From: an uncultured Clostridium sp.
GTDB lineage: Bacteria; Bacillota; Clostridia; TANB77; CAG-508
NCBI GenBank assembly: GCA_947384775.1
Contig: CANDIF010000001.1
Coordinates: 121,976 to 185,975 of the forward strand
Direction of reading: 5' to 3'
DNA length: 64,000 nt
Of the stretch, positions 109 to 34,292 are shown piece by piece. How positions within the stretch are numbered: position 1 is the first letter of the stretch; each line of letters opens with the position of its first letter. Below the pieces are notes generated by a model, which was given only the letters and a program-made list of their open reading frames with translations, did not search any database and was not told where the DNA came from. Position numbers and translations under genes: made by a program.

Positions 109-2100
<1,992 letters not shown>

Positions 2101-2751
2101 TTATTCAAATAATTCTTTACAACCTTTTAAGTAGTTTACTCCAGAAAATACTGCAGCTATTGTTGATATTACCATAAATGAAGATGCCAATATGTTAATT
2201 ACTAATTCATATCCTGTTAATCCTTCTGAAACAAATGCAAAGAATGCATGTAAATCAATAAATGTTAAGATTATTGCAATCATTTGTGTAACAGTTTTAA
2301 TTTTCCCCCAAATATTTGCTGCAATTACTTTTCCACCTTTTTCTACAGCAATCAATCTATATCCAGATACTACGAATTCTCTTGTTAATACTATGATTGG
2401 AATCCATGCGGGTATTTTGCTCATTTCTACTAACATAAGCATTGCAGATAACACTAAAATTTTATCTGCAAGAGGGTCTGCAAATTTTCCAAATGTAGTA
2501 ACTAAATTATGCTTTCTTGCTATTTTACCATCTAAATGGTCTGTATATGACGCCACTGCGAATATTGCAATTATGATTAAGTTTTGAATTGGAATATTCC
2601 ACAATGTTCCTTGTATTCCTAAAAAAGGTATTATAACCATTATCGGTACTAAGATTATTCTAAATATTGTAAGTTTATTTGGTAAGTTCATAATAAACAC
2701 TCCTATCAAATTATTTTTTACTATTATATATAATTTATTGAAATAAAACAA
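2101..2751 (-). CDS. pgsA: CDP-diacylglycerol--glycerol-3-phosphate 3-phosphatidyltransferase (CDP-alcohol phosphatidyltransferase family)
   Basis: 216 aa multi-TM protein with the D-x2-DG-x2-AR ... D-x3-D motif (DHLDGKIARK...DPLADK). Confidence 0.8.
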   Translation of the reverse strand: MFYFNKLYIIVKNNLIGVFIMNLPNKLTIFRIILVPIMVIIPFLGIQGTLWNIPIQNLIIIAIFAVASYTDHLDGKIARKHNLVTTFGKFADPLADKILVLSAMLMLVEMSKIPAWIPIIVLTREFVVSGYRLIAVEKGGKVIAANIWGKIKTVTQMIAIILTFIDLHAFFAFVSEGLTGYELVINILASSFMVISTIAAVFSGVNYLKGCKELFE

Positions 2752-2809
2752 TGGGTATTTAGAAAATTTTTGAAAAGGAAATGATTCCTTATTAGTAATA
2801 CAACAAATA

Positions 2810-2842
2810 GAAAGTATTGTAGAATAACTACAATACTTTCTA
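2810..2842. terminator. Perfect 14-bp-stem hairpin flanked by T/A runs; candidate bidirectional terminator
   Basis: agaaagtattgtag-aataa-ctacaatactttct lies just 3' of the minus-strand surface-hydrolase gene. Confidence 0.5.
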
Positions 2843-2910
2843 TAAATTTTTCTTAGTTCACTTTTAAATTAACTGTCTATTCTAGATAGTTTTTATATTA
2901 TGATATTTGT

Positions 2911-5724
2911 TTAAGGTTTTACGCTAAGGTTAGGTTGTAATGTATACCTTCCGTTGCTGCGATTTGCTGATGAAATACTATTTAATGTAGCATTATCATT
3001 GAAGTGCCACCATTCTGATTGTAGTCCTATTAATCCTGCACTAGTACAATATCTTTCTAACTTCTTTGCGTTATCATTCATAGTTGCTGCATATCTGTAT
3101 GAAGTTGCTGTTGTATATCTTGCTGCTGCAACACTTAATTCATGCATTGCTGTTGGCATCTGTACTTCTGAACTACTTGTAACTACTGTATATTTATAAT
3201 CTCCTGTTACCTTTGTTTGTGTTTCATTAACTTTTACTAGTGTAACATCTATTGCTATACCTTGTTGATGGTTTGATGTTCCTGTACTTATGAACCATCC
3301 TAGTTTCCATCCATTTACTTTAATTCCATTAGCTACTGCTGTATTATTTGCCATTAGATTAGTTAACGAACTTGCTATTGCTGTTTGTGTATCATATGGT
3401 CTAAAAGATTCATAAATTTTTAGAGAATATCCTTCTGCTAATGCTGCCTTTTGTGCCTTTGCTATTTTAACTGCCATTCCGAATAATACTGGCATATCAT
3501 ATTGGTAACAACCAAGTCTTGTATTATTGTTATACACATTATATAATTTATTTCCAGTAATATTAGGTAGATCTACACCTGATGATTTGAAAATACTTGA
3601 TGCACTGTTACTATCATAATAAACTATACTTGGAATTACATCTGGTAAATTCAATAAGACATATGGTGCATATACATATCCTGTACTTCCATCTCTGAAC
3701 ATTACTTTTAGCCAATTACTATTTTGTTCTATTATTGTAAAACTTGTTCCTGGATTTACTGTACCAAGTAATCTACTACTTGATGTGGCATTTTCACGAA
3801 TATTTAATTTTATTGAAGCCCATCCTGTTGCTCCTTTTAAAGGAAGCTCATATATTCCATTGTAAAAATCCACTGATGAGCTTGTATTATTTTTTGTTGT
3901 AAATCTTACTGGATTTGTATTATATTCTCCTGCCACTCCTCCATTAAGTGCTTTAACATTTACACAATATGCACTTCCAGGTATCAATCCTGTTATTTCT
4001 ACATATGTTCCTGTTACTACTTTTGAATATCCTTGTGTTTGATTTTCTAATCTATAATATACTTGATATTGTGTTGCACCTGATACTCTATTCCAACTTA
4101 TTTTTGCTGATTTATCTTTTATCTCTGTTACATTTAATCCTGTTACTTTAGCTATTGATGGTGTTGTTGGGTTACTTGGAGACGTTGTTGAATTTGTTTT
4201 GAAGCTTTTTTCGTCTGAATATGCTCCTGTTGTCGTTCCTATACATGCTCTTACTTTTATTCTATATGTTGTTCCAGCTTGTAATCCTGTTAATGTTGCT
4301 CTATTTCCTGTAATTTTTCCTATTGGGTTACCGTTTATAGCAATCTCATATTGTGTCGCTCCTGATACTGTATTCCAACTTATATTTGCACTATTTATTG
4401 ATGGTGTTACATTTAATCCTGTTACTTTAGCTACTGTTGGTGTTGTTGGGTTACTTGGAACTGTTGTTGCATTTGTTTTGAAACTTTTTTCATCTGAATA
4501 TGCTCCTTGTGTTGTTCCTTTATATGCTCTTACTTTTACTTTATATGTTGTTCCTGCATTTAATCCTGATATATATTTTGACGTTGTTCTAACTTTTGGT
4601 TGTGGTACATATCCTATTCCTGGTATATATATTGATACCTCATATTCTGTAGCATTTGATACTGCATTCCAACTTACTGTTACTGTATTTGATGTTGCTA
4701 CTGTTTTTACATTCATTACTTTTCCTGGTGTTACTCCTGATGAACTTGAGCCAGTTGTTGTAAATCTTATTTCTGATGAATAATCTCCAACTCCTCTGCT
4801 ATTACATGCTGCTATTTTTAAATAATATGTTACTCCTGGTTGTAAATTGTTAATTTGTAAATTTGTTGATTTAATTCTTCCTATAACTTTATAGCTTGTG
4901 TTTGCTGTTCTTAATGCTATTTCATATTCTGTTGCTCCTGATACCGCATTATATCTGAAAGTTGCTGTATTTGAATTTACTGTTACTGTTCTTAAATTTG
5001 TTACTTTTGTTGGTCTTGAACTACTTGATGAACCTCCTCCACTTGAAGAGCTTCTTGGTGTTCTAAAATTTACTTCTGCAGATTCTGCTGCATCTCCTCT
5101 ACTATTAAATGCTATTATTTTTGCTCTATAATTTAATCCATTTTCATTTCCTGTTACTGATGTAAATCCTGTTACTGTTGCTGTTGTTCCTGTTACATTT
5201 TGTACATATGTATATCCCATTCCTGGTATATATACATATACTTTATATCCTGTTGCTCCACTTGATCTATTCCATGTAAGTGTTACTGCATCGTTCGTTA
5301 CTCTTGTTGTACGTAATCCTGTTACTCTTGCTGGTTTTGAACTACTTGATGAGCTTCCACCACTTGAAGAGCTATTTGATGTTCTAAATGATACTTCTGT
5401 TGAATATTGTCCGCTACTTGAACCACTTATTGCTCTTACTTTTACTTTATATGTTTCTCCTTTATCTAATCCTGATATATATTTAGATGTTGTCTTAACT
5501 CTTGGTTGTGGTACATACCCTATTCCTGGAATATATATTGACACTTCATATTCTTTTGCATTAGTAACTTTATTCCATGTTACTGTTACTGCATTTGCCG
5601 TTGGTTTTGCTTTTACATTTGTTACTCTATTTAGTGTTACTGCTAAAACTTGTGTTCCTGCTAGCAATAAAATTATGATAACTAATATCGAAAGTCTTGA
5701 ATATATCTTTCTATTTTTCATCAT
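2911..5724 (-). CDS. Secreted multidomain cell-wall hydrolase: signal peptide, six fibronectin type III-like repeats with Ser/Gly linkers, SH3b domain, C-terminal M15 (VanY/L-Ala-D-Glu peptidase-like) Zn-peptidase
   Basis: N-terminal hydrophobic signal. Repeated ~90-aa units (YEVSIYIPGIGYVPQP...YKVKVRA). SH3b-like GWASIKL...GYVYAPYV. M15 signatures SNHQQGIAIDV (H-x6-D) and EWWHF (E-x2-H). Confidence 0.7.
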   Translation of the reverse strand: MMKNRKIYSRLSILVIIILLLAGTQVLAVTLNRVTNVKAKPTANAVTVTWNKVTNAKEYEVSIYIPGIGYVPQPRVKTTSKYISGLDKGETYKVKVRAISGSSSGQYSTEVSFRTSNSSSSGGSSSSSSKPARVTGLRTTRVTNDAVTLTWNRSSGATGYKVYVYIPGMGYTYVQNVTGTTATVTGFTSVTGNENGLNYRAKIIAFNSRGDAAESAEVNFRTPRSSSSGGGSSSSSRPTKVTNLRTVTVNSNTATFRYNAVSGATEYEIALRTANTSYKVIGRIKSTNLQINNLQPGVTYYLKIAACNSRGVGDYSSEIRFTTTGSSSSGVTPGKVMNVKTVATSNTVTVSWNAVSNATEYEVSIYIPGIGYVPQPKVRTTSKYISGLNAGTTYKVKVRAYKGTTQGAYSDEKSFKTNATTVPSNPTTPTVAKVTGLNVTPSINSANISWNTVSGATQYEIAINGNPIGKITGNRATLTGLQAGTTYRIKVRACIGTTTGAYSDEKSFKTNSTTSPSNPTTPSIAKVTGLNVTEIKDKSAKISWNRVSGATQYQVYYRLENQTQGYSKVVTGTYVEITGLIPGSAYCVNVKALNGGVAGEYNTNPVRFTTKNNTSSSVDFYNGIYELPLKGATGWASIKLNIRENATSSSRLLGTVNPGTSFTIIEQNSNWLKVMFRDGSTGYVYAPYVLLNLPDVIPSIVYYDSNSASSIFKSSGVDLPNITGNKLYNVYNNNTRLGCYQYDMPVLFGMAVKIAKAQKAALAEGYSLKIYESFRPYDTQTAIASSLTNLMANNTAVANGIKVNGWKLGWFISTGTSNHQQGIAIDVTLVKVNETQTKVTGDYKYTVVTSSSEVQMPTAMHELSVAAARYTTATSYRYAATMNDNAKKLERYCTSAGLIGLQSEWWHFNDNATLNSISSANRSNGRYTLQPNLSVKP

Positions 5725-21304: not shown

Positions 21305-22324
21305 TTATTTATTCTCCTTTTTAGTTGTTCTTTTGTTTGTTGTTCCTGATTTTTTTGTTGTAGATTTTGATGTGGTATTTGTTCTTTTAGTTGCAGGTTT
21401 AGCTGGTACTTTCTTTGCAGTTGTTGTAGTAGAAGATTTTTTTGTTGTTGATGTTTTAGTAGTATTTGTTTTTTTAGTTGTTGGTTTTTGTTTACTTTCA
21501 GATTTTGTATCTTCTATACTTGTTTTTTCTACCTTTTTAGAAGTAGCCTTCTTAGCAGGTGTGTTTTTAGTTTTATTACTTGTTGAAGAAGGTTTCTTTT
21601 TTACAGTATCTGTTTCTTTTTTTGTTGTAGCTTTAGTTGATGGTTTTGCTGGGTTTGCTGCTAAATCTTCTTTTGCCTTACTTGCTAAGTTTTGTTTTTT
21701 TGTTGCACTTTTTGTTTTAGTTTTTGCTATTTCTTTTCCTTCTTTTTTAGTTGCTGTAACCTTTCTTTTAGCTCTAGCTGCCACTGCTTTTTCAGTTCTA
21801 CTCTTAGAAGCTTTTTTTGCCATATTGTCTTGACTTTCTTTTTTTATTATTGTGTCTATATCATCATTTATTTTTAATGCTAAATTCTTTTCTTTATTAT
21901 AAATAACTATTATTTTTATTATATAGTATACTGTCATTAATAATATGCAAGAAATAATTGTTATTTTATTAAACACATAATATATATATGGTGCAAATAA
22001 CGAAATTAATGCAAATATAAGTATTTCTAAACCTATTAGTGCATATTTTCCATCGTCTTTTTTATATCCTATTTCAAAAATAGCTATAGTAACTATTAAT
22101 AAAATAGATGCTGAAATATGGTATATTACTTCTGCAATATTTTTAGAAATATAAAATGTTGCCAAATAGTAAGATAGCATTAAAATTATAAAAGAAACTC
22201 CAATAGCAAAATTTGAAATCAATCTTCCAAATATTGCTTTTTGATTTTCTTTTGATAAAGTTCTCTTTTCTCGTATTTTTTCAAAATTTGTTATTGTGTT
22301 CTTTTTCAATTTTTTGTCCCCCAT
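21305..22324 (-). CDS. Membrane protein with ~170-aa Lys/Thr/Ala/Ser-rich, histone H1-like, low-complexity C-terminal tail
   Basis: 339 aa; 4-5 TM helices in the N-terminal half, then KKATSKK/TTKK repeats. Confidence 0.55.
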   Translation of the reverse strand: MGDKKLKKNTITNFEKIREKRTLSKENQKAIFGRLISNFAIGVSFIILMLSYYLATFYISKNIAEVIYHISASILLIVTIAIFEIGYKKDDGKYALIGLEILIFALISLFAPYIYYVFNKITIISCILLMTVYYIIKIIVIYNKEKNLALKINDDIDTIIKKESQDNMAKKASKSRTEKAVAARAKRKVTATKKEGKEIAKTKTKSATKKQNLASKAKEDLAANPAKPSTKATTKKETDTVKKKPSSTSNKTKNTPAKKATSKKVEKTSIEDTKSESKQKPTTKKTNTTKTSTTKKSSTTTTAKKVPAKPATKRTNTTSKSTTKKSGTTNKRTTKKENK

Positions 22325-23089: not shown

Positions 23090-25216
23090 TTATCTTCCTT
23101 CTGTATCTCCTTGAGTAGTTCCAGATAAATTAGTTTTATTATCTTCATGTTGTTCCATATCTTTTGCCAATTGTGCAACTACATGATTTTGTCCAGCTTC
23201 TTCTGGTGGTATTCTAGTAGATGTTTTTTCTAGGTCTTCTTTACTTAATACACCTGTCCTTATTGCCAATTCAGTAAACGCAGTATCAGACATTCCACTA
23301 ATATAATCTGTTGCAACTTGCATAGCCATATGTCTTTCCATAAAGTTTCTCTCATTATCTATTAGCATTTTTGTAACTTCATCACGTTGTTCTGCTGTAA
23401 TATCTAAAGAACCATATTTAAGTTTTATTCTATCTCTAACAGCTTCTACTCGACTTATATATCTACCAACATATAAACTCTTTTCATCATGTTCTTCTGG
23501 ATATTTAGGATCTAATGCCTTTTCTACTTTATCTTTTACTCTTTGTTCTATCGCTTGATATGTAAGAGTATATTGTCTTGCAAAACTTTCTCCCTGGTTT
23601 TGAAGATGTTCATAAATACTTGCAAATAATTCATATCTAGATTGAATTTTACTAACTGCTTGGTCTCCAGTAAATTTTTTATTTGAACTTCTAAAATTTC
23701 TTATGCCATACATTTTTCTCATTCTTAAATATCTTTCTTGAGCCTGCTCAACAGTTTCATTCGCCCTAGCTCCAACCTTCATACTTTCAGCAATCTCTTT
23801 ATCTCTGATAAATTCTCTAACAGTTGGGTCAAAGAATTTATTTCTAACAGCTCCTGTTGATATCAAACTTCCTGCAGACATTGCTGCTAGTCTTAAAGCT
23901 GCATTAGGTAGGGCTTCTTTTTGATATTGCCATTTAACATAAGGTGTATATGTTGCATAATTTATTTTTTTTGCTTTGAAAAAAATTCTTTCAGCAGTAG
24001 CAGAGAAGTGCGGAACTCCTGTTGCTACAGATTCTTTTAAAAGATCATTTATAAAATATTCTTGCATTCTTGTGGTTACTTCTGCAACAACACCAGAACG
24101 TAAACGTGATTTTTTACCTACAAATTCTCTTACTTTTTCCATTTCAGAATACATATATTGTAATTTTTCGTCAGTCAAGTTCGTCCCATACAAATGCTTC
24201 ATTCCTTGTAAATGTCTTTCAACAACTTCCATTGCAGCATCTTCATTATCCTCAAAATCAAGATCTTTTTCTCTTAATTCTGCAATAATTTCATTTGCTA
24301 TTCTTATTGCTCTTTGGTTTCCTGGAAGTCTTGCATCATCAAATAACTCCCTTAATCTTTTTTCTTTTATTTGATCAATAATAGTTCTTGCATTTGCAAT
24401 TTTTTCCTCGCTTGTACGAGCAAAAGATGTTGAGAACATTTCTCCAAATACTTCTAAATAATCATCAGGGAAATCCTTGTATATACCAAGTCTAAATCCA
24501 TCTTGTATGTCAGTTGCCAAATAGGCTATAACATCCGCATATTTAGCAAGTTTTCCTTCTGGAGTTTGTGCTACAAACTTATACTTATTAGTAGCATTTG
24601 CTGAAAGTAGTTTTTGTTCAACAGCTGTCCTTATATCAGGATACTCATCAGCTTCTCTATACATCTCAGCTGGAGATGCCTCTCCATCATGTGATATAAC
24701 AATATCCAAAAAGTAGTAAAATTCTTCTCTTAATTTATCTCTAAGATTAGGGTTTAATTCAATATTTGGAATTTTAGAAATAGCTTTTTCACATATGTCC
24801 TCACTCAATATTATTTCTACACCCTTAGCATTATGATGGAAAAATTGAGTATTGCTTAATCCTCCAATATCAGAAAATATAACTTCTCCTTCATGTCCAC
24901 TAAATGGATGCCCTGCATCATGCATTAACATTCCTGCATAAGCAAACTTAGAATTTAGTCCTAGTCCCTTTGCTAGTCTTCTTATAATATTAGCTGCATT
25001 TCTTACATGTGTAGCTCTTGATGTAACATGGCTTTCCAAAGAGCCTTTCGGCGTTGCCATTGGTTTTGTTTCTGCACGTTTCATAAAATTACTTTCATCA
25101 ATAGCTTCAATTAAGTATTGCATATATGGATCCCAAGTTAATTTCGTTCTTTGAACATTATTAGTTGGTGTTTCTTTAATATTATCTATTTCCATAAAAA
25201 ACCTCCATTTGAGCAA
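23090..25216 (-). CDS. dGTPase-like HD-domain triphosphohydrolase with long C-terminal extension
   Basis: 708 aa; HD motif ...HVRNAANI...MLMHDAGHPFSGHEGE typical of the Dgt family. About 200 extra C-terminal residues. Confidence 0.75.
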   Translation of the reverse strand: MLKWRFFMEIDNIKETPTNNVQRTKLTWDPYMQYLIEAIDESNFMKRAETKPMATPKGSLESHVTSRATHVRNAANIIRRLAKGLGLNSKFAYAGMLMHDAGHPFSGHEGEVIFSDIGGLSNTQFFHHNAKGVEIILSEDICEKAISKIPNIELNPNLRDKLREEFYYFLDIVISHDGEASPAEMYREADEYPDIRTAVEQKLLSANATNKYKFVAQTPEGKLAKYADVIAYLATDIQDGFRLGIYKDFPDDYLEVFGEMFSTSFARTSEEKIANARTIIDQIKEKRLRELFDDARLPGNQRAIRIANEIIAELREKDLDFEDNEDAAMEVVERHLQGMKHLYGTNLTDEKLQYMYSEMEKVREFVGKKSRLRSGVVAEVTTRMQEYFINDLLKESVATGVPHFSATAERIFFKAKKINYATYTPYVKWQYQKEALPNAALRLAAMSAGSLISTGAVRNKFFDPTVREFIRDKEIAESMKVGARANETVEQAQERYLRMRKMYGIRNFRSSNKKFTGDQAVSKIQSRYELFASIYEHLQNQGESFARQYTLTYQAIEQRVKDKVEKALDPKYPEEHDEKSLYVGRYISRVEAVRDRIKLKYGSLDITAEQRDEVTKMLIDNERNFMERHMAMQVATDYISGMSDTAFTELAIRTGVLSKEDLEKTSTRIPPEEAGQNHVVAQLAKDMEQHEDNKTNLSGTTQGDTEGR

Positions 25217-25431
25217 AATTGCTCTAATAAATATTTCTCATAAAGTACTCAGTAAAATGAATTTAATTAGTATTAAAAACCTATTAATACTATTTTATAT
25301 TTTATCATAAAATGGTGAAATTTGCAAAGTTTTCTGGTAATTTTATGTAAATAATTTCATTTTTCATTTTTAAAAGAATTAGCACTAACTCACTTTAGTA
25401 AATTAGTACATAAATATCTTCATATTATTAC

Positions 25432-25480
25432 TCACCAGCGGGCTGTAGGATAACCTACAGCCCGCTGGTTTTGTACAAAA
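25432..25480 (+). terminator. Perfect 14-bp GC-rich hairpin plus T-run at the edge of a higher-GC islet
   Basis: cagcgggctgtagg-ataa-cctacagcccgctgg-ttttg. Confidence 0.5.
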
Positions 25481-25507
25481 TTATTCGCACACAGTCTTGA
25501 CTCTTCT

Positions 25508-25939
25508 CTATTTAAGTTTATCAAATAGATTGTGGCACACCGTAAATGCTGCCACAAGAGAAAGAAGTGCATTTGCCACCCAAAATTGCCAAATTTGTAA
25601 TGCTGTGGGTAGCACAAACAGCATTAGTGAAAAAATGATAGTGAACGGAACGATAAAGCTGCACGCTTTTTCTGTGATTTTTTTCCACTTTTTCTGCCAG
25701 GTCACGCCAAAGAGCCCAAAATATATCCAGGCAGTCAGTGGCGCAATTGCCAGTTGAATGGTCCACATAGGAACAAACGCGTTGAAGTCGAATGGTAGTT
25801 CATGGCTTTCCAGCCAGACAAAGGTCACCAGTGTCAGCTGGAACAGGTATGCTGTTGCAATACCCGCTAAGATTGCCCATAGTTCATTGCCTTTCCGTTT
25901 CATGTGCTTTTCATCCTTTCTTGTAGCCAAGATTAACAT
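25508..25939 (-). CDS. Small 4-TM membrane protein, higher-GC islet gene. Likely real start is Met13 (25903), which has an RBS
   Basis: 143 aa (131 from the second Met), ~45% GC. Confidence 0.5.
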   Translation of the reverse strand: MLILATRKDEKHMKRKGNELWAILAGIATAYLFQLTLVTFVWLESHELPFDFNAFVPMWTIQLAIAPLTAWIYFGLFGVTWQKKWKKITEKACSFIVPFTIIFSLMLFVLPTALQIWQFWVANALLSLVAAFTVCHNLFDKLK

Positions 25940-26051
25940 AGGGCGAATTCCCTAATGACTGTGATTGTATCATATTTATGTTGATTTGTAAATTAGTATT
26001 TTTTAGATGTCTCTTTGAATGGAATTATTCGACACTAGTTTTATTTTTTTA

Positions 26052-26116
26052 CTGACATTCTGCCCCGTCCCTTCTGACACCTTCTGATGTCACTTGGGAC
26101 GGGGTCATTTGACATT
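26052..26116. repeat. REP-like repeat cluster A (right-end copy abutting the RAYT stop codon)
   Basis: tgacattctgccccgtccc + 2 x ccttctga iteron + inverted unit tgtcacttgggacggggtcatttgacatt. GC-rich 9-bp palindrome arms CCCCGTCCC/GGGACGGGG. Confidence 0.75.
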
Positions 26117-26789
26117 AATTATTATACAGCTTTCTTATTTTTTCTCTATTCATTTGTAATAATTGAGAAATTTTCCTTAGTGATAATCCATTATCTCTTT
26201 TTAATATCAACAGTAATTCTTTTAATTTTACTTTACTCTTTTTTAATTCGTTTATTTCTAAATTATTTTCTATCAAAAACCTTGCTATTAACTCTTGACA
26301 AATATTTTCATTGTCAACATCTAAAAATATATAACCGTCTTCTAGAACTTTATTTTCATCTTTGCAATCTGAATACGGATATTCTTTTGCTTGATTGCAT
26401 ATTCCTGCTTTTACAGGATTATTATGAATATAATTAATGCAATTGCATAATTATTCTTCACTATATATGCCTTCTGATTTATACCTATCTCTAAATACAT
26501 ATCCTACTCTTTTATGCTTATTATTATAGTATTGAGCATATTGAGTGTTAATTTTGTGCATATATTTACTAAGATTTTCTATGTTATCAGTTTGTAACAA
26601 CATGTGTGTGTGATTATTCATAATACAGTATGCTAATATATCTACATTTTCTTTCTTCGCTACTCTTTTCATCAATTCTATGTAATATTCTATATCTTCT
26701 TTTTTATCAAATATGTAACTCTTATTTATTCCTTGAGTTATAATATGAAAATATGATGTCTGTATATAACTTCTTGGAAATCTTGGCAT
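26115..26789 (-). pseudogene. REP-associated tyrosine transposase (IS200/IS605 Y1 family, RAYT-like) with C-terminal DnaA-domain-IV-like HTH; interrupted by an in-frame TAA at 26451-26453
   Basis: N-terminal 112 aa: PRFPRSYIQTSYFHI, HuH motif NHTHML, catalytic Tyr in VFRDRYKSE. In the same frame after the TAA the translation continues ...INYIHNNPVKAGICNQAKEYPYSDC... (conserved IS200 TnpA C-terminus) plus an HTH (LSLRKISQLLQMNREKIRK), ending at 26115. Confidence 0.7.
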
Positions 26790-26886
26790 TTCAGACTCAA
26801 CTCCTCTATCATCAAATTTTTTGTATTTATTCTACATTATTTTTCACAATAAATTTGTCGAAATTTGTCTTTAATCCGTTTATTTT

Positions 26887-27012
26887 TTTATGTCATTCTG
26901 CCCCGTCCCTTCTGACACCTTCTGACATTTTTTTATGTCATTCTGCCCCGTCCCTTCTGACACCTTCTGATGCCTTCTGACCCCCTTTTGACCTTTTGAC
27001 ACTTTTGACATC
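26887..27012. repeat. REP-like repeat cluster B (two tandem direct units upstream of the RAYT gene)
   Basis: 2 x tttatgtcattctgccccgtcccttctgacaccttctga, then decaying iterons ccttctga/ccccttttga/ccttttgac/acttttgaca. Confidence 0.75.
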
Positions 27013-27520
27013 ATTTAATCAAGTCTTCATTAATACACTCTAATATCCTTTCATATATACTATCAAAATCAATATTCATTAGTCTTTCATTTAACTTTAG
27101 ATACAATTGATTTTTTTCTTTTATGTGCATATTCTTTCTGTTATATACTCCTTGTAATTGTTCTATAACATAATTTAAATTGCGATTACCAATTATGTCA
27201 TTATATTTTTTTACTATATTTATGTTTTTAATTATATTTTCTTCAAGATTTTTAAATAGTTTTATATATATTTCTTCTTTTTCTTTAATGGAATAATTAT
27301 AATATTGCCTTATCAAAATATCTTCAATATTATTATTTTTATAAAATTTCACATGTATATAAATATTATAAAAACTATATATCAGATTTTCCCATTTTCT
27401 AAGTAAATTTACTCCACTTACATGTTCTTTGCTTGTTACCGTATTAACAATTTCATCTTTTATGCTTATTAATTTTCCCCAACTGTCATATGTATATGAT
27501 GTCACTTGGGACGGGGTCAT
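27011..27520 (-). CDS. Orphan RHS-derived fragment: N-terminus homologous to the RHS core region (SYTYDSWGKLISIKDE), remainder unrelated with no DPxGL
   Basis: 169 aa. Codons 1-7 (MTPSQVT) are encoded by the REP inverted unit. Residues 8-23 are ~90% nt-identical to 28861-28896 in the main RHS gene. Confidence 0.45.
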   Translation of the reverse strand: MTPSQVTSYTYDSWGKLISIKDEIVNTVTSKEHVSGVNLLRKWENLIYSFYNIYIHVKFYKNNNIEDILIRQYYNYSIKEKEEIYIKLFKNLEENIIKNINIVKKYNDIIGNRNLNYVIEQLQGVYNRKNMHIKEKNQLYLKLNERLMNIDFDSIYERILECINEDLIK

Positions 27521-27647
27521 TTGACATTAAATTCATTTTTCTCTATGTCATTCTGCCCCGTCCCTACTGACAAATTCATTTTTCTCTATGTCATTATGCC
27601 CCGTCCCTTCTGACACCTTCTGACACCTTCTGACACCTTTTGACATC
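27497..27647. repeat. REP-like repeat cluster C (one inverted unit + two direct units + four 10-bp iterons)
   Basis: tgtcacttgggacggggtcatttgacatta; 2 x aattcatttttctctatgtcatt[c/a]tgccccgtccc; ccttctgaca x3 + ccttttgacatc. Confidence 0.75.
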
Positions 27648-28038
27648 AATAGATAATATATTTGATTTTTTCACATATAATATATGTTATTTCATTATCT
27701 ATATTAGTTTCATTCCATTCCATGCTGTCTGCCCAAAAAATTAAATTATTATTCATATACATTTTTGCCCCATCTATATTATTAAAATATTTACTTTTAT
27801 CGTATATATGTATATTCATTTGTTTTATTCTTTCAAAATGTATTTCAATGGTACCTCCTAATTGACTTTTTAAAATCATCTTAATTTCACTTTCTTCGTC
27901 TTGTCTCATATATTTTCTTTCATCAACATACATACCTGTTTTACAAAAGAATTCTATTACGCAACTATCATGAAAATTATAAAATTTCTTCATTATTTCA
28001 TCAATATCATTTTGCGAAGTTACATTTTTCCAATCCAT
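27646..28038 (-). CDS. Putative cognate immunity protein for the RHS C-terminal toxin
   Basis: 130 aa, soluble, immediately 3' (68-nt gap) of the toxin-encoding end of the RHS gene, no recognisable family. Call is positional. Confidence 0.45.
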   Translation of the reverse strand: MDWKNVTSQNDIDEIMKKFYNFHDSCVIEFFCKTGMYVDERKYMRQDEESEIKMILKSQLGGTIEIHFERIKQMNIHIYDKSKYFNNIDGAKMYMNNNLIFWADSMEWNETNIDNEITYIICEKIKYIIY

Positions 28039-28106
28039 ATTTCTAAATTTTATATAATGAAATTATATTTCACTATATTCTCCTTTCTTTTATATACTTT
28101 TTTTAT

Positions 28107-31100
28107 TTATGGTGTTGCAGCATTAGCTGGAATAGTCCACCATAAAGCTGGAAATAGTGACGGTATCATTCTTATTCCTCTATATAAAACATATCCACCC
28201 ACACCTATTCCAATTCCTTTTCCTAAATTTCTAAAATTATATGCAGGTCCTCTTTTGCACTTGTCTCCATCCCATTCCCAATCATGGTTATGTGGAAATT
28301 TATGAGTTCCATCATCAGTATGGTTATAATCAGTATCTCGTGTTGCTTTTCCATCAGGTCCATAATATCTTCTCTTTTTTATCGTTCCATCTGGATTTAA
28401 TAAATCTTCTGTGGAATTAGGTTTTCCCTTTGTTGATAAGTCCTCAGCGAATCTAATGTTTTTTCTTGTATATGCACTATTATTAGAAATTGCAGATATT
28501 TTTATAGCATTTTTTGCCATATTTGTTGCAATTATAGGTGCTGATAATTTTTGGATTTCTTTACTTATTAAATTTTTAATATTTTTTATAATTGATAAAA
28601 TCGAAACACTTCCTAATGGATCATAATAATTTATAGGATTATTTGAACAGTATGCAAACAAGTTATGTCCTATTATTTCATTCCCACCATTAAACGTCCC
28701 ATCCGCATTCAAGAATCTTCCCCATTCTGGGTTATAGTATCTTGAATTTAGGTAATATAGTCCTGTTTCTGTATCGTATCTATAACTCCTATATCTGTAT
28801 GGGTTTGCTATTCCCACATGATTTGGGTCTGTTATCTCTTTTCCTTCTTCATCTTTTATGCTTACCATTTTTCCCCAGCTGTCATATGTATATGATACTA
28901 TGTGATTTTTATTATTGTCAAGTATTCCTATTATATCTCCTTGTAAATTTTTTAAATATAAATAAATAGCTCCATTATACCTTAGTCCCATAATGTCTCC
29001 ATTGTTGTCGTAGAAATAGTATATTACACTATTACTGTTATCTTTTTTCTCATATATTACTTTTGTTCCTTCTAAAAAGTATTCTGTTGTTACTCCATTT
29101 ACTGTTTTTTCTGTCCTTATTCCTTCATCATTATACTTATAACTTATGTTTAATCCTGTATTTTCATTTGTTATACTTTTTAATTCTCTTCCATTCTGCC
29201 AAGTGTATGTATTTCCATTATATGATAATGGATTTCCAATTGTATCATATGTTATTGTTTGTCCATTGTAACTTGTTAATTGATCTTTCCAATTTGTATT
29301 TCCATATGTATAATTTATCGTTTTTGTTGCTGTTCCTAATTCTCCTGTTGTATATGGATATTCTGTTTTATTTGTAATATTTCCTCCTAAATCATATTCA
29401 TATGTGATAGTTTTACTTAAAGTTTCATTATTTTCTCTTTTTAATTGGTTTAAGCTGTCATAATAATATGTTGCACTTTGTCTACCTCTTACATTCTTTA
29501 TATTACCTAATTCATCATAATTATATCCTATGAAAAATGAATCTCCCTCAATACTTGATACTCTTGATGTTGTTCTATTACTATCTACATTTTCATAGTC
29601 ATACCTTATAATATAAGATTTATTGGCTCCACTAATAAATTTTCTACTTAATCTCGATAAATTGTCATAATCAAATTCCATTGAAATACTATTCCCTGAA
29701 TTTGAGTCTCCAGAATATGTTGAAACAGATGTAATTCTGTTTTGATTATCATATCCATAATTTTCTCTACTTATATTGCCATTGAATACATATTCTGAAT
29801 AATTTAAATTGTTGTTTTTATCATATTTGTAAGCTCTCTTAAATCCATATAAAGCATTATAAACGTTTGTTATTCTTCCTGATAAATCATATGTATAGTA
29901 TTCCTTTATTCCTTCTGGTGTTTCTATGTATGCTAAATTTGATTGTGCATCGTACTTATATTTATATGTTCCTTGCTCTTTTGTTTGTGTTGTCATTATA
30001 TTAAATCTATCATATGTATATGATATCGTATCATCATTTCCATATATCACACTATTTAAATTTCCATAGTTTTCATCATAATTATTTGTTATCAATGTTT
30101 GATTAGCTATTTTTACTTGTTTTCTATTTCCATATTCATCATATGTAAAATAATAGTTAAATCTATTATGAGCTATTGTATTTATTCTATCATTTTCATA
30201 TGTATACCTATTTTGATATGTTTTGTTTCCTACTGTTTTGCTTACTATGCTTATTCTTCCTAATTCATCATATGTGTAATTTGTTTCTGTTCCTTTGGCA
30301 TCTGTTACTTTATCTAAATTTCCATTTGTTTGGTTGTATTCATATGTTGTTTCTTTTCCTGTTTCGTCTTTTATTTTTGTTAGATAATTTCCATTTTCTG
30401 TATATTCTGCATTTGTTTCTATATATTTACTATTTGTATTGTTTGTTATCTTTGAAGTTGTTGCTTGTCCGTATTGGTTATATGTAAAGTTATAATTTAC
30501 TTCGGTGCTACTTATCGCTTTGGTTAGTCTATGTTTATATGTTGTATCATATTGATATTCAAATGTTCCACCCCTTGGATTTGTGTATTTTATTAAATTA
30601 TCATTTCCATCGTACTGAAATGTATTGTTCTGCTTTGCCAAATCTTGTGTTTTTATAATATTTCCATTACTATCATATTGATAGCTTTGCCCAAAGTGGT
30701 CTTTATATAATGCTACATTTGTTATATATGCTACATTTAGATTTTCGTAAAAACAGAAATATACTTGTATCTTTCTATAGTCATGTTCAGCTATAAATTC
30801 ATTTTGTACAAACTGCCATTGATCACTTGGATTTACTCTTACTGTTCTCCATTGTTGTTCACCGTTGTTTCCTATTATGCATACTGTAAAATCTGTAACG
30901 GTAGTATTATTTTTATTTCTTACTCCTCCTGCATATATCCATGCAGATATGCTAAATACATCTCCTTGTTTTCCTCCTGTTATTACATCTTGACGTATAT
31001 ATTTTTTTACAGTAGCTTCTCCTTCTAATTTGTAAAAATTACTTCCAGTTCCTACTGGTAGTGCTACCCAGTCTATATTTGGATTTGTATTATATGTTAT

Positions 31101-34100
31101 CCAACTCTTTGGATTACTTCCAGTATAATCAAATGCTGAGTTTTCTACCATATTATATTGGTTTTCAATAAATCCTTCTTCTACTTGTATATCGTCATAA
31201 TATATTGTGCCTGTATTTCCGAAAAATCCAATTACAACAGTCAAACTACTTGTTGCATCTTCTGGATAATATAAACTTAATGAGTATTTGTTCCATTCTG
31301 AATTTTTTTCAATAATATCTTGCTCTTCCATAACTCTATTTCCTGAAGCATCTAGATAATACAATTGTATATATCCCTCTCCAAGACTAGTCTTTTCAAG
31401 TTTTAATTTAAGAGATAAAGTATATGTTTTTCCCTTTTCTGCATTACAGTAATGATACGCTGCTGGTTGAACACTTTCTGTAAAGATACTTGATATTTTC
31501 ATACTTCTACTTCCAGTATAGCTATCTTCTGTACTGTATTCTATTGAACCAGGATTATTCCCCCAATTTCTAAATTCCCATTCTCCATCATATTCAAAAC
31601 TTCCATTAAATACTAAATTATTTACTGATTTTGTTAATGATCCATCCAATGTTAATCTATTTTTAGCTCCGCCACTTTCTCCATAATTGTACACTTTTCC
31701 ATATGCTTGACTAAGGTCAATTCCATCTTTTCCGAAATCTGCTACACTTATTGCTTGTCCCCAATCATTAAATGTTACATTATTACTAAAACCTTTATTA
31801 TCTGTAAATGTTGTTAAGTTGTCGTTATATGCTATGGTTAATCTATTTCCTAATTCTAAATTACTTGCACGTTCTTCTATTGTTTTTACTCTGTTAGTTT
31901 TTTCTGGATAATATTCAAAATTCAAATGTTTCCCATCTATATTTAATAGCATAACTAATAAATTATTTTGGTATACTAGCATTGATTCTCTGTTATCTAA
32001 ATATTTAATTTCTCCTAATGTACCATCATTGTAGCATACAAATTGCATTGATTTTCCATCTGGACCTGTTAATTTGTTCAAATAGTTTCCCGCATATTCA
32101 AAGGTTATTTCTTGTCCTGCTCCATCTGTTACTTTAGATATAACAAAGTCATTTGCCTCTGTTTCTGAAAATGTTATTATTATTTTATTTCCATTGTTAT
32201 CTTCTATTTCTTTTAAGTGCCATAAATATCTTCCTGCAACCGTTCTTCTTTCGAACCTTATTACATTATCTCCTTTATCTTTCATGCTAAACACTGCTGT
32301 TGCTGCATCTAATGTTAATTCTAAATTTAATCCATCTTCGTCTTTATATATATTTCCTTCTTTGGTAAAATAATGTCTTGTTCCATCTTCATCTATATAT
32401 TCTGCATATTCTGTACCACCTATTGTTACCAATTCTATTGTTTGTGATAAATTAAGTCTCATTCCATTTCCATATCTGGAACCTATATCTTTATCGTTTG
32501 TATTATATACATGTGTTATTGTTACTGGAAACCTTTCTCCTGGTGTTGATATATCGTTATGTATCCATACTAAATTTCCATTATAGTCATTTGTATATAC
32601 TGTTCCTGCTCTTCCCAAATCTTGAGTATGGTAACTTAAATAATCTTCTAATCCTGTTTGATTTCTATATATAATTTGTACTACTGGTCTTCCTTCATAC
32701 CAAGTTACATTTGTATCTGATGAAATAAAATATGCATCATTTCCTGAAACATTATTTGCTTCTGAATGTTCTTTTATCATTACACCATAGTTATTTCCTG
32801 TTGTGTACCACTCTTTAGCTGCTGTTGTTATATTAAATGTATATTGTTTACATTGGTTGTTATAATCGAATTGATATAGAATAAAATCTTCTGCTCTTGA
32901 ATTGTAATTTGCATTTGTATTACTCCATGTTGCTGTATTTTCATTCCAATCTGCAGTTATTTTATGTGCATCTAATTGTATTTGTCTAGTATTAGGTGTC
33001 CATTCACTTGTTTTTGGATATGTAAATATATTTAAATATGCTCCTATTACTTGATCTCCAGCTTTGAGTTCTGGAAGATTAAATTTTACTAAACTTCTTG
33101 TTGGGACTCCACTATTGTTTCCTGCTCTTATTATGTGTGCATTTCCTTTTGGGTCACTTCCTTGGCTTGAATATATAAATGTATCCTTAATATCATCATA
33201 ATATCTTGATGTAATTATGCTTGGATCTATTGTTATTGGATATATTCTTTCTGCTGCTTCTAGCCATTTTTTATCTGGTATTAATGTTATTATGTATTTA
33301 TCTGCTTGCTTTTCTAATTTTATATCAATATCTGAACTAAACTCTAATTTGTTGTCATACATAAATGGTGCTTCTATTGTAAATTTTACATTTTCTTCTG
33401 TCTTATCGTATACTATTATGTCTTTTGTTTCTAATAGTTTCATTTCAAGTGTTCCAACATCATATACAAATTTCAATTCATTATTTATTGATTCTTTATT
33501 TTGTAATATAATGTTTTCTTTTACATGTTCTGGTTCTGCTGAATATTCTATGCTTATATTACTTAATATTTCATTATATTCTATAGATGTTGTTGGTATT
33601 TGTGTTTTTACTTCTTTTGCTCGTAAACCTTTAACTTCTCTTTTCTCTAAGTTTTTATTATTTACATTTACTTTTGAAGATTGCGAATTTACTAATCCCC
33701 ATTTTATTGTATATCCTTCACTTTCCATACTTCCTAATCTGTATCCATTTGTTTTATTAGTAAAATATATTTGTGCATTTCCTGTTTTATTTTTGTAAAT
33801 TTTTGTTTCCTTTTTCTGTTCTTCTATTATTGCTTTATTTAATTTTTCTTCTATTTGATTGTTTTGCATCATTTCTATTTTAGTATTTTCTTCTGTTATT
33901 TTTAGTTTTTCTTCTGTATCAATTACTTCCTCTAATGTATTGTCTACATCTAGGAATTTTCCATCTTTCTCATAATGTACATTACTTGGAAATACTGATG
34001 CCACTACACTTCCATCTGACCTTAGGAAATGTTTTTCTGTATATGTTCTTTCTTCTTCCAGTTCTCCGATTATAACTGGTTCTGCTTTTTCCTGTTCTTT

Positions 34101-34292
34101 TGCTTGCTTTTCTAAATGTTCATCTAAACTTTTATGCATGTCTACTTTTGCTTCCATTTTATTGATTACAGCGTTTATATTTACTGCAATTGCAATATTT
34201 GGCACAAATTGAAAGACCATCACAAACACAAGTATTGTTGCAATGATCTTTTTTAATTTCTTTGGGCTTAAATGTTTTTGCATATTCATCAC
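28107..34292 (-). CDS. RHS/YD-repeat polymorphic toxin (WapA-like wall-associated protein) with Sec signal peptide and variable C-terminal toxin domain
   Basis: 2061 aa. N-terminal signal/TM (IIATILVFVMVFQFV). Dozens of YD repeats (YxYDxxGRL/ YTYD...G.). RHS repeat-associated core ending in the hallmark ...NPINYYDPLG (DPxGL). Then a 167-aa CT. Confidence 0.85.
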   Translation of the reverse strand: MMNMQKHLSPKKLKKIIATILVFVMVFQFVPNIAIAVNINAVINKMEAKVDMHKSLDEHLEKQAKEQEKAEPVIIGELEEERTYTEKHFLRSDGSVVASVFPSNVHYEKDGKFLDVDNTLEEVIDTEEKLKITEENTKIEMMQNNQIEEKLNKAIIEEQKKETKIYKNKTGNAQIYFTNKTNGYRLGSMESEGYTIKWGLVNSQSSKVNVNNKNLEKREVKGLRAKEVKTQIPTTSIEYNEILSNISIEYSAEPEHVKENIILQNKESINNELKFVYDVGTLEMKLLETKDIIVYDKTEENVKFTIEAPFMYDNKLEFSSDIDIKLEKQADKYIITLIPDKKWLEAAERIYPITIDPSIITSRYYDDIKDTFIYSSQGSDPKGNAHIIRAGNNSGVPTRSLVKFNLPELKAGDQVIGAYLNIFTYPKTSEWTPNTRQIQLDAHKITADWNENTATWSNTNANYNSRAEDFILYQFDYNNQCKQYTFNITTAAKEWYTTGNNYGVMIKEHSEANNVSGNDAYFISSDTNVTWYEGRPVVQIIYRNQTGLEDYLSYHTQDLGRAGTVYTNDYNGNLVWIHNDISTPGERFPVTITHVYNTNDKDIGSRYGNGMRLNLSQTIELVTIGGTEYAEYIDEDGTRHYFTKEGNIYKDEDGLNLELTLDAATAVFSMKDKGDNVIRFERRTVAGRYLWHLKEIEDNNGNKIIITFSETEANDFVISKVTDGAGQEITFEYAGNYLNKLTGPDGKSMQFVCYNDGTLGEIKYLDNRESMLVYQNNLLVMLLNIDGKHLNFEYYPEKTNRVKTIEERASNLELGNRLTIAYNDNLTTFTDNKGFSNNVTFNDWGQAISVADFGKDGIDLSQAYGKVYNYGESGGAKNRLTLDGSLTKSVNNLVFNGSFEYDGEWEFRNWGNNPGSIEYSTEDSYTGSRSMKISSIFTESVQPAAYHYCNAEKGKTYTLSLKLKLEKTSLGEGYIQLYYLDASGNRVMEEQDIIEKNSEWNKYSLSLYYPEDATSSLTVVIGFFGNTGTIYYDDIQVEEGFIENQYNMVENSAFDYTGSNPKSWITYNTNPNIDWVALPVGTGSNFYKLEGEATVKKYIRQDVITGGKQGDVFSISAWIYAGGVRNKNNTTVTDFTVCIIGNNGEQQWRTVRVNPSDQWQFVQNEFIAEHDYRKIQVYFCFYENLNVAYITNVALYKDHFGQSYQYDSNGNIIKTQDLAKQNNTFQYDGNDNLIKYTNPRGGTFEYQYDTTYKHRLTKAISSTEVNYNFTYNQYGQATTSKITNNTNSKYIETNAEYTENGNYLTKIKDETGKETTYEYNQTNGNLDKVTDAKGTETNYTYDELGRISIVSKTVGNKTYQNRYTYENDRINTIAHNRFNYYFTYDEYGNRKQVKIANQTLITNNYDENYGNLNSVIYGNDDTISYTYDRFNIMTTQTKEQGTYKYKYDAQSNLAYIETPEGIKEYYTYDLSGRITNVYNALYGFKRAYKYDKNNNLNYSEYVFNGNISRENYGYDNQNRITSVSTYSGDSNSGNSISMEFDYDNLSRLSRKFISGANKSYIIRYDYENVDSNRTTSRVSSIEGDSFFIGYNYDELGNIKNVRGRQSATYYYDSLNQLKRENNETLSKTITYEYDLGGNITNKTEYPYTTGELGTATKTINYTYGNTNWKDQLTSYNGQTITYDTIGNPLSYNGNTYTWQNGRELKSITNENTGLNISYKYNDEGIRTEKTVNGVTTEYFLEGTKVIYEKKDNSNSVIYYFYDNNGDIMGLRYNGAIYLYLKNLQGDIIGILDNNKNHIVSYTYDSWGKMVSIKDEEGKEITDPNHVGIANPYRYRSYRYDTETGLYYLNSRYYNPEWGRFLNADGTFNGGNEIIGHNLFAYCSNNPINYYDPLGSVSILSIIKNIKNLISKEIQKLSAPIIATNMAKNAIKISAISNNSAYTRKNIRFAEDLSTKGKPNSTEDLLNPDGTIKKRRYYGPDGKATRDTDYNHTDDGTHKFPHNHDWEWDGDKCKRGPAYNFRNLGKGIGIGVGGYVLYRGIRMIPSLFPALWWTIPANAATP
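28110..28610 (-). other. C-terminal toxin (CT) domain of the RHS protein, after the DPLG motif; family unassigned
   Basis: 167 aa after YYDPLG. His/Asp-rich motif DYNHTDDGTHKFPHNHDWEWDGD and a C-terminal glycine-zipper LGKGIGIGVGGYVLYRG. GC ~36%, higher than the repeat body. Confidence 0.5.

Follow-up and report, generated by a model that had tools for sequence, protein, structure and literature searches.

The locus studied here lies in a 64,000-nucleotide (nt) stretch of contig CANDIF010000001.1 from an uncultured Clostridium sp. (hereafter the window, to which every count "in the window" refers). It raises the question of why a transposase-like gene on the minus strand carries a TAA stop codon in the middle of a frame that is open on both sides of it. 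An earlier note on this stretch had left three answers side by side: a very recent inactivation, a sequencing error and programmed readthrough. On our results, the first of these is very probably right. The gene is a single local member of the RAYT-like/TIRYT kind, and its TAA is a fresh null allele that arose from CAA, a genuine polymorphism segregating among strains and not a recoding signal.

To begin with the frame, an ATG at position 26789 of the minus strand opens a 112-codon open reading frame (ORF; 26789..26451), which is ended by the TAA at 26451-26453. The earlier note had placed this ORF and its stop correctly. Beyond the premature TAA, the frame continues uninterrupted through 111 further sense codons up to the natural stop TAA at 26115-26117. 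Given the base composition of the gene's strand, the probability of 111 stop-free codons by chance is P = 4.6e-6. This stretch holds both of the peptides pointed out in the earlier note, NYIHNNPVKAGICNQAKEYPYSDC and LSLRKISQLLQMNREKIRK. The joined product has 224 amino acids (aa); the previous figures of another 112 codons and about 225 aa had included the stop codon, and the continuation of the frame itself was described correctly. The alignments with Pfam Y1_Tnp, NCBIfam REP_Tyr_transpos and the structure 4ER8 all cross the premature TAA without interruption. Furthermore, a database protein of 224 aa (P0001) differs from the joined product only at residue 113, where it has Gln. Since the family homology runs across the TAA, the two halves are one gene. 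Translation through the stop also bore out the description of one in-frame nonsense codon without a frameshift. An intact translatable gene was not found in the window, codon 113 being TAA, and no paralogue of the transposase gene was detected there, so that it is present in one copy.

Rescue of the distal half by reinitiation was considered and rejected. No in-frame ATG, GTG or TTG occurs from the premature TAA to Tyr120, and the first downstream start, a TTG at 26276, yields merely a 53-aa tail of the C-terminal helix-turn-helix (HTH) domain. On the plus strand, an ORF (26087-26437) is present opposite the hidden C-terminal half. We compared 80 related loci from the genomes of further uncultured gut Clostridia (hereafter the family loci). 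In all but one, the match covers 197 or more of the 224 query residues; the remaining one (L093) matches residues 1-144 only. At least 100 stop-free antisense codons over the C-terminal half were observed in 2 of the 80 loci, with a median of 70. Thus, the frame is not conserved, and the plus-strand ORF is an antisense artefact, as had been proposed. For annotation, both halves are better called as one pseudogene, and the antisense ORF is better dropped.

The joined protein was compared with known families. It matched Pfam Y1_Tnp with E = 6e-13 and scored 89.6 bits against the NCBIfam model REP_Tyr_transpos (NF047646; cut-off 80) over residues 6-140. In a PDB profile search with 35 homologues, E. 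coli TnpA_REP (4ER8) was the sole meaningful sequence match. The AlphaFold (AF2) model of the 224-aa protein had a predicted local distance difference test score (pLDDT) of 84.5, and its best Foldseek match was 4er8_A (E = 1.4e-7, TM 0.72 on the target). Ranks 2-30 were occupied by the TnpA structures of IS200, IS608 and ISDra2, which have the same Y1/HUH fold. The residues H60, H62 and Y120 are invariant across the 35 homologues and align with H59, H61 and Y115 of TnpA_REP, and N124 aligns with N119. In TnpA_REP, Y115 is the catalytic residue, N119 is a metal ligand, and H59 and H61 form the HUH motif (PMC3479197). Judged from the profiles and the model, the joined frame encodes a Y1/HUH tyrosine transposase of the RAYT/IS200 superfamily, of the RAYT type. 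The RAYT/IS200-like assignment of the earlier note is in agreement with this. In the window allele, Y120 lies downstream of the premature stop; the stop at codon 113 thus removes the catalytic helix.

To answer where the stop came from, codon 113 was compared among strains. It is CAA in ten loci (L001-L010) and TAA in ten others (L011-L020). In nine of the ten CAA loci, the base at codon 113 is the sole difference from the window over 678 nt, and the TAA loci show zero differences over the same length. The CAA locus L002 is 100% identical to the window across 5,926 nt downstream. Upstream, a 3.4-kb deletion aside, the identity is 99.94%, and the one mismatch is the codon-113 base. The nearest species (L021, 83% aa identity) also has CAA, the family residues at column 113 are Q, H or Y, and a stop before the end of the match was found in none of the 80 family loci. 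The ten TAA loci come from two NCBI metagenome-assembled genomes (MAGs), seven samples of the ENA ERZ128027xx-9xx accession run, and ENA ERZ28621249. The truncated 112-aa product (P0121) is recorded from at least 22 contigs, whose sources are NCBI MAGs, seven samples of the same ENA run, and ENA ERZ28621249. In addition, there is a TAA haplotype with a D101N change (P0124). As the gene and 5.9 kb of flank show no other change, the allele is very recent. This comparison of sequences indicates that the TAA is a genuine, derived and very recent C-to-T nonsense mutation (G-to-A at 26453 on the plus strand), and the single-base difference between CAA and TAA sister loci agrees with the option of a very recent inactivation.

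The consequence for the protein may be described as follows. Intact proteins of the superfamily would bind folded single-stranded repeat DNA and then cut and rejoin it, with a metal ion held on the HUH histidines and a covalent bond formed to the tyrosine of helix alpha-D; we infer this single-strand cleavage mechanism from E. coli TnpA_REP. One C-to-T transition on the coding strand changed codon 113 from CAA (Gln) to TAA. The product ends at residue 112, with H60 and H62 kept and with Tyr120, Asn124 and the entire HTH domain lost. Without these elements, the cleavage chemistry would be impossible for the truncated product. The null allele circulates in a mouse-gut Clostridia population.

With the TAA derived and with Tyr120 and the HTH domain lost, we read it as a fresh null allele and reject both a sequencing error and programmed readthrough. 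If the stop were an error of sequencing or assembly, the true base would give a sense codon and the gene would be intact in the source organism. A single-base difference is indeed the commonest type of error, and an intact allele that differs solely at the codon-113 base exists. However, the identical TAA occurs in ten loci from independent samples, assemblers and projects, other samples consistently show CAA, and the D101N haplotype carries the TAA as well. Since at least 10 assemblies made independently in several projects share the TAA, an error is scarcely conceivable. Programmed readthrough or suppression, by which the TAA would be decoded at a useful frequency to give full-length enzyme in regulated amounts, would fit the 111 intact in-frame codons after the stop and the fact that both alleles are common in the population. 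Nevertheless, the stop is not conserved, since it is absent from the sister strains, the nearest species and the 80 family loci, and the intact downstream frame is expected from the recency of the allele, with zero other changes in 6.6 kb. Moreover, TAA is the standard stop codon here. It terminates 34 of the 42 (81%) long minus-strand ORFs in the window, and 11 of these ordinary genes end in TAAT, the same context as that of codon 113. In bacteria, termination is strong at UAA with a following U, which counts against readthrough. No tRNA genes are present in the window, and thus no suppressor tRNA was found there. On these grounds, we consider programmed readthrough very improbable. An alternative genetic code or a suppressor was likewise rejected, because TAA ends 81% of the long minus-strand ORFs and the window is tRNA-free.

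The 112-aa fragment might also be functional by itself, for instance as an inhibitor or regulator that binds the repeats without cutting, and its allele might be under selection. The fragment retains the beta-sheet and the HUH half of the fold, the TAA allele is frequent, and the adjacent repeat-bounded array still varies among TAA strains. In the model, however, the elements past residue 112, including alpha-D, belong to the same compact domain, which makes a stable fold doubtful. Natural truncation at this place was seen in no other family member, and drift or clonal spread in mouse colonies can explain the frequency of the allele. We therefore give a functional fragment a slim chance. Several points also weigh against a fresh null allele. 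Some low-level readthrough of the TAA is formally conceivable, and the frame after the TAA is intact, as a readthrough gene would show, although recency explains this equally well. In public assemblies, the TAA seems to equal or exceed CAA in frequency, which is somewhat unexpected for a deleterious loss and expected if the gene is dispensable. Rearrangements of the repeat-bounded array are also seen among TAA strains.

Given that the TAA marks a fresh null allele, the kind of gene that was lost can be asked. Quentin et al. (2018, PMC6006769), in the passages on the class, equate TnpA_Y1 subclass 2.1 with the terminal inverted repeat (TIR)-flanked TIRYT genes of Di Nocera et al. (2013, PMC3733652). 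Compared with what those passages describe, our protein is RAYT-like but longer, with a C-terminal HTH tail. The gene has long inverted repeats on both sides, at fixed distances, and not GTAG-tagged REP hairpins; the repeats are G-rich at the core and also occur as dimers and clusters; and the gene is usually single-copy amid housekeeping genes. There are also differences from the TIRYT description. The motif given for the TIRYT/"TIRtron" repeats in PMC3733652 is GGGGWSAS, and the repeats match it at 7 of 8 positions only: the reverse complement of the window's right-end (RE) unit reads GGGGTCAT, and most relatives have GGGGACGG. The HTH tail is of the short type and gives no match to Pfam Bac_DnaA_C. 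The host belongs to uncultured low-GC gut Clostridia, which the relevant passages of PMC3733652 and PMC6006769 do not name. In this lineage, the repeat dimers gather mainly in an Rhs toxin array, and in the window the gene is broken. On sequence features, the gene would match the TIRYT/TnpA_Y1 subclass 2.1 class as portrayed in those passages.

The classical RAYT/REPIN systems (Nunvar 2010; Bertels and Rainey 2011; Ton-Hoang 2012; Messing 2012, PMC3479197) were also compared. E. coli TnpA_REP (YafM, 4ER8) gave the best profile and fold match, with the HUH histidines, the tyrosine and the alpha-D Asn aligned. As in RAYT/REPIN systems, the gene lies between inverted repeat units, and the gene-less inverted doublets form a long, REPIN-like hairpin as single-stranded DNA (ssDNA). 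In contrast, the Foldseek alignment of the model with 4ER8 shows no more than about 16% identity, and an extra HTH domain is present. The single arms do not fold and carry no GTAG tag, and no genome-wide repeat population was seen, with 7 units within 1.6 kb of the 64-kb window. With the TnpA proteins of the IS200/IS605 family (IS200, IS608 and ISDra2), the protein shares the Y1/HUH fold and presumably the same single-strand chemistry, and the doublets resemble end-only miniature derivatives of such elements. However, the score against the NCBIfam IS200 model (NF033573) was 24.4 bits, below the cut-off of 55. The repeats are true inverted terminal repeats and not same-strand subterminal hairpins, and the gene is single-copy at a fixed position within the species. 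The chromosomal neighbourhood is constant across strains, both for the window gene and for the relatives P0032 and P0102. An autonomous IS200/IS605 insertion sequence was therefore rejected, on this score, on the one copy in 64 kb and on the constant neighbourhood. The fixed positions of the relatives among housekeeping genes and the layout of the repeats follow the TIRYT/RAYT pattern and not that of an autonomous insertion sequence.

The C-terminal domain had been described as an HTH resembling DnaA domain IV. Residues ~158-224 were modelled as five helices with pLDDT 88. Among 21 family C-termini, Pfam matches were obtained to Sigma70_r4 (17/21), HTH_11 (16/21), HTH_23 (14/21) and HTH_28 (8/21). 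These matches and the model establish the C-terminus as an HTH domain, and this part of the description stands. For the window's C-terminus, no Pfam match to Bac_DnaA_C was found at E <= 10, nor is this family among the 25 families most matched by the 21 C-termini. A PDB profile search with the C-terminus gave nothing, DnaA included. In the fold search, the DNA-binding domain of M. tuberculosis DnaA (3PVP, 3pvp_A) gave the best full-length superposition, with TMq 0.68 and rmsd 2.3 over 67 columns at a non-significant E = 3.5. Most structural matches span the three-helix core alone (LsrR, DeoR and sigma region 4). Thus, the likeness to DnaA domain IV is at best a distant fold resemblance. According to the passages on subclass 2.1 in Quentin et al. 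(2018, PMC6006769), the tails there are either long and DnaA_C-like or short and HTH_23/28-like, and a DnaA likeness that is at most distant fits this description.

Table 1. Coordinates of the transposase gene, the flanking repeats and the neighbouring toxin genes in the window.
Feature	Position	Strand	Basis
Complete RAYT/TIRYT-type Y1 (HUH) transposase gene, 224 aa, here a pseudogene; includes natural stop 26115-26117	26115..26789	-	profile, fold, database protein
ORF as now translated, 112 aa; HUH motif (H60, H62) kept, end precedes catalytic tyrosine	26451..26789	-	translation, alignment
Premature TAA at codon 113, from CAA (Gln)	26451..26453	-	locus comparison
Untranslated rest: alpha-D helix with Tyr120 and Asn124, linker, five-helix C-terminal HTH domain (~residues 158-224)	26118..26450	-	alignment, model
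Right-end (RE) inverted-repeat unit, begins 1 nt past the natural stop codon	26088..26114	+	repeat search
Extra left-end (LE)-type unit beyond RE; hairpin-capable pair with RE	26053..26079	-	repeat search, folding
Two tandem 45-nt LE copies, cores 26891-26917 and 26936-26962, ~100-170 nt upstream of the ATG	26882..26970	-	repeat search
Gene-less repeat cluster (decamers, LE, LE, RE), with the Rhs immunity gene on one side and the next array module on the other	27500..27645	-	repeat search
Main Rhs/YD-repeat toxin gene (28107-34292) and presumed immunity gene (27646-28038); start of the repeat-bounded array that ends in the transposase gene	27646..34292	-	profile matches
169-aa ORF starting inside an RE unit; deletion chimera of an Rhs core-end fragment and the 3' part of a DUF4085-family gene	27011..27520	-	comparison with L002

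The transposase gene is flanked by inverted repeats, which are listed in Table 1. The 27-nt unit TGTCA-N3-GGGACGGGG-N5-TGACA occurs in 7 copies, all within 26053-27615 (1.6 kb), and no further unit was found elsewhere in the window, even at 3 mismatches. The 65-nt stretch with the RE and the extra LE-type unit has an ssDNA fold of -15.9 kcal/mol (z = -5.3). The gene-less cluster is a derivative of the transposase element in miniature form. The 73-nt doublet (LE, 18 nt, RE) that lies at module junctions in sister strains has a consensus whose ssDNA hairpin reaches -17.3 kcal/mol (z = -6.2); the RE-proximal doublet of the window (27500-27572) is 2 positions off this consensus. Single 27-nt arms gave folds of just -1.1 and -1.8 kcal/mol (z about -1) and lack GTAG. 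Thus, the two-arm doublet folds and single arms do not, and the units are not REPs in the sense of GTAG-tagged extragenic palindromes that fold one by one. A link to CGTC-tagged REPs was rejected as well: CGTC is present in the repeat core, but CGTC-tagged REPs form small hairpins on stems of 8-9 bp, and the architecture differs.

The same layout was observed in more than half of the 80 family loci. The LE lies ~80-165 nt upstream of the gene, mostly at 120-165 nt, and the RE lies a few to ~100 nt downstream, typically ~10-20 nt. A unit equivalent to the RE was detected downstream of the gene in more than half of the loci. At least 46 of the 80 have a perfect inverted match of at least 13 nt between the upstream and downstream flanks, and in many the match is at least 20 nt, the upper limit of the search. 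The repeat core GGGACGG(A/G)G varies together with the protein across the family loci, and dispersed intergenic copies or pairs of the repeat are present in three relatives (L053, L039 and L095). The exact 21-nt RE core gave 0 matches in species-representative genomes, the JGI metagenome collection and viral contigs, collections that evidently do not contain the present species. A scan of metagenomes with the 20-nt LE gave 3 matches, of which 2 are chance matches in DNA of 44-48% GC and 1 is a solo LE-like unit in another low-GC organism. This unit, TGTCAATGGGGACGGGGCAGAATGACAT, lies in an ordinary intergenic region (L109, 3100-3200) of a 6,955-nt contig without a transposase gene, and suggests that such units disperse in related genomes.

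Some further features of the repeats were observed. A decamer, TGTCAGAAGG, copies the opening bases of the LE and is present in 1-5 tandem copies directly 5' of the LE (window 26908-26982 and 27606-27645), and its copy number varies by junction and by strain; before the tandem LE of the window, the copies reach 26982. Upstream of the gene, one LE is present in L001, L011 and L016 and two in the window, L002, L009 and L012, and a tandem duplication is also found in L003 (4333/4362). The RE unit (ATGTCAAATGACCCC...) has ATG codons in two frames (window 27498-27530; L001 3553), so that ORFs and gene calls of 5'-truncated toxin fragments begin inside the repeat. These ATG codons are probably incidental, since they are absent from L021. 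On the minus strand of the window, the repeat cluster (27481-27633) gave a sub-threshold Rfam match to the Wolbachia small RNA WsnRNA46, with 22.8 bits (gathering score 65.3) and E = 0.23, which is probably due to chance. A scan for promoters and terminators gave nothing over background, and the doublets are unlike intrinsic terminators.

The repeats extend into a neighbouring Rhs toxin array. On the gene strand, the order is Rhs toxin, 130-aa presumed immunity gene, repeat cluster, 169-aa ORF and transposase gene. The Rhs toxin has 2,061 aa and matched RHS_repeat with 103.9 bits and a Tox-WTIP tip with 41 bits. The 169-aa ORF consists of ~50 nt of Rhs core-end (SYTYDSWGK...) followed by the last ~450 nt of a DUF4085-family gene, the DUF4085 annotation itself sitting on the 340-aa parent gene. 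Compared with L002, the window lacks L002 positions 1940-5332 (3.4 kb), and this deletion, which gave rise to the chimeric ORF, has its endpoints outside the doublets. Sister strains have up to four extra modules in the interval, including Tox-WTIP and Ntox44 fragments and a DUF4085 gene, and the array content differs among strains with identical flanks. Between the Rhs/immunity genes and the transposase gene, modules 3, 4 and 7 are present in L002 (CAA), modules 3, 4, 6 and 5 in L001, L003 and L004 (CAA), modules 3, 4, 7 and 5 in L011 (TAA), and a truncated module 7 in the window and L012 (TAA). Every delimited module junction bears a doublet of LE, spacer and RE (window 27500-27645; L001 1666-1757, 3516-3564, 4334-4382 and 5116-5163; L021 2760-2808 and 3399-3447). 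The array of L021 has the same design with co-varied repeats. On two short metagenome contigs, the intact transposase gene was found at other places: in another doublet directly after module 3 (L010, 1004 nt), and directly before a version of module 6 that is ~120 nt longer (L006, 1602 nt). Thus, the gene, or the RE junction, does not have a fixed place in the array.

These observations raise the possibility that the transposase and the 73-nt doublets form a cassette-handling system for the Rhs locus, in which segments from LE to RE would be excised or inserted as single strands. The doublets mark the array junctions both in the present species and in the next one, whose enzyme is 83% identical; the transposase gene lies in one of the doublets, which is not the same one in all strains; and module content differs between strains with 100% identical flanks. 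Against this, arrays differ among the TAA (null) strains too, the endpoints of the 3.4-kb deletion in the window avoid the doublets, and more distant family members are unlinked to toxin genes. We therefore regard a cassette system as unlikely. If it were true, it would be an integron-like shuffler of toxin cassettes built on an HUH enzyme, and the TAA would freeze the shuffler. Most simply, the doublets can be read as REPIN-like derivatives that have built up in a toxin array prone to recombination, to which they would contribute no more than short homology for recombination or slippage. Linkage to Rhs genes as a trait of the family was rejected, because it is shared by L021 alone and the other members lie among housekeeping genes. 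Our literature searches gave no report linking RAYT/TIRYT repeats to Rhs orphan arrays.

Two other regions of the window were noted. The bin 24001-26000 is the GC-richest 2-kb bin (0.339, compared with 0.24-0.325 in the others). It covers the 5' part of an HD-domain gene and a 143-aa membrane-like ORF (25508-25939), for which the gene calls of sister strains give either 131 or 143 aa. The other region is a minus-strand ORF of 339 aa (21305-22324), which has an N-terminal membrane region and a long low-complexity tail rich in Lys, Thr, Ala and Ser, and no Pfam annotation is recorded for its orthologues.

As for the meaning of the locus, the gene is a broken additional member of an already described family, and its loss is an ordinary event, as single nonsense mutations often inactivate transposase-like genes. 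The passages of the literature examined report no activity for the TIRYT class. The two alleles provide a natural experiment, in which near-isogenic strains of one gut Clostridia species carry either an intact or a null TIRYT-type enzyme. Comparison of a CAA strain with a TAA strain bears on whether such enzymes mobilise their flanking repeats, and also on whether these repeats drive the turnover of Rhs toxin/immunity modules.

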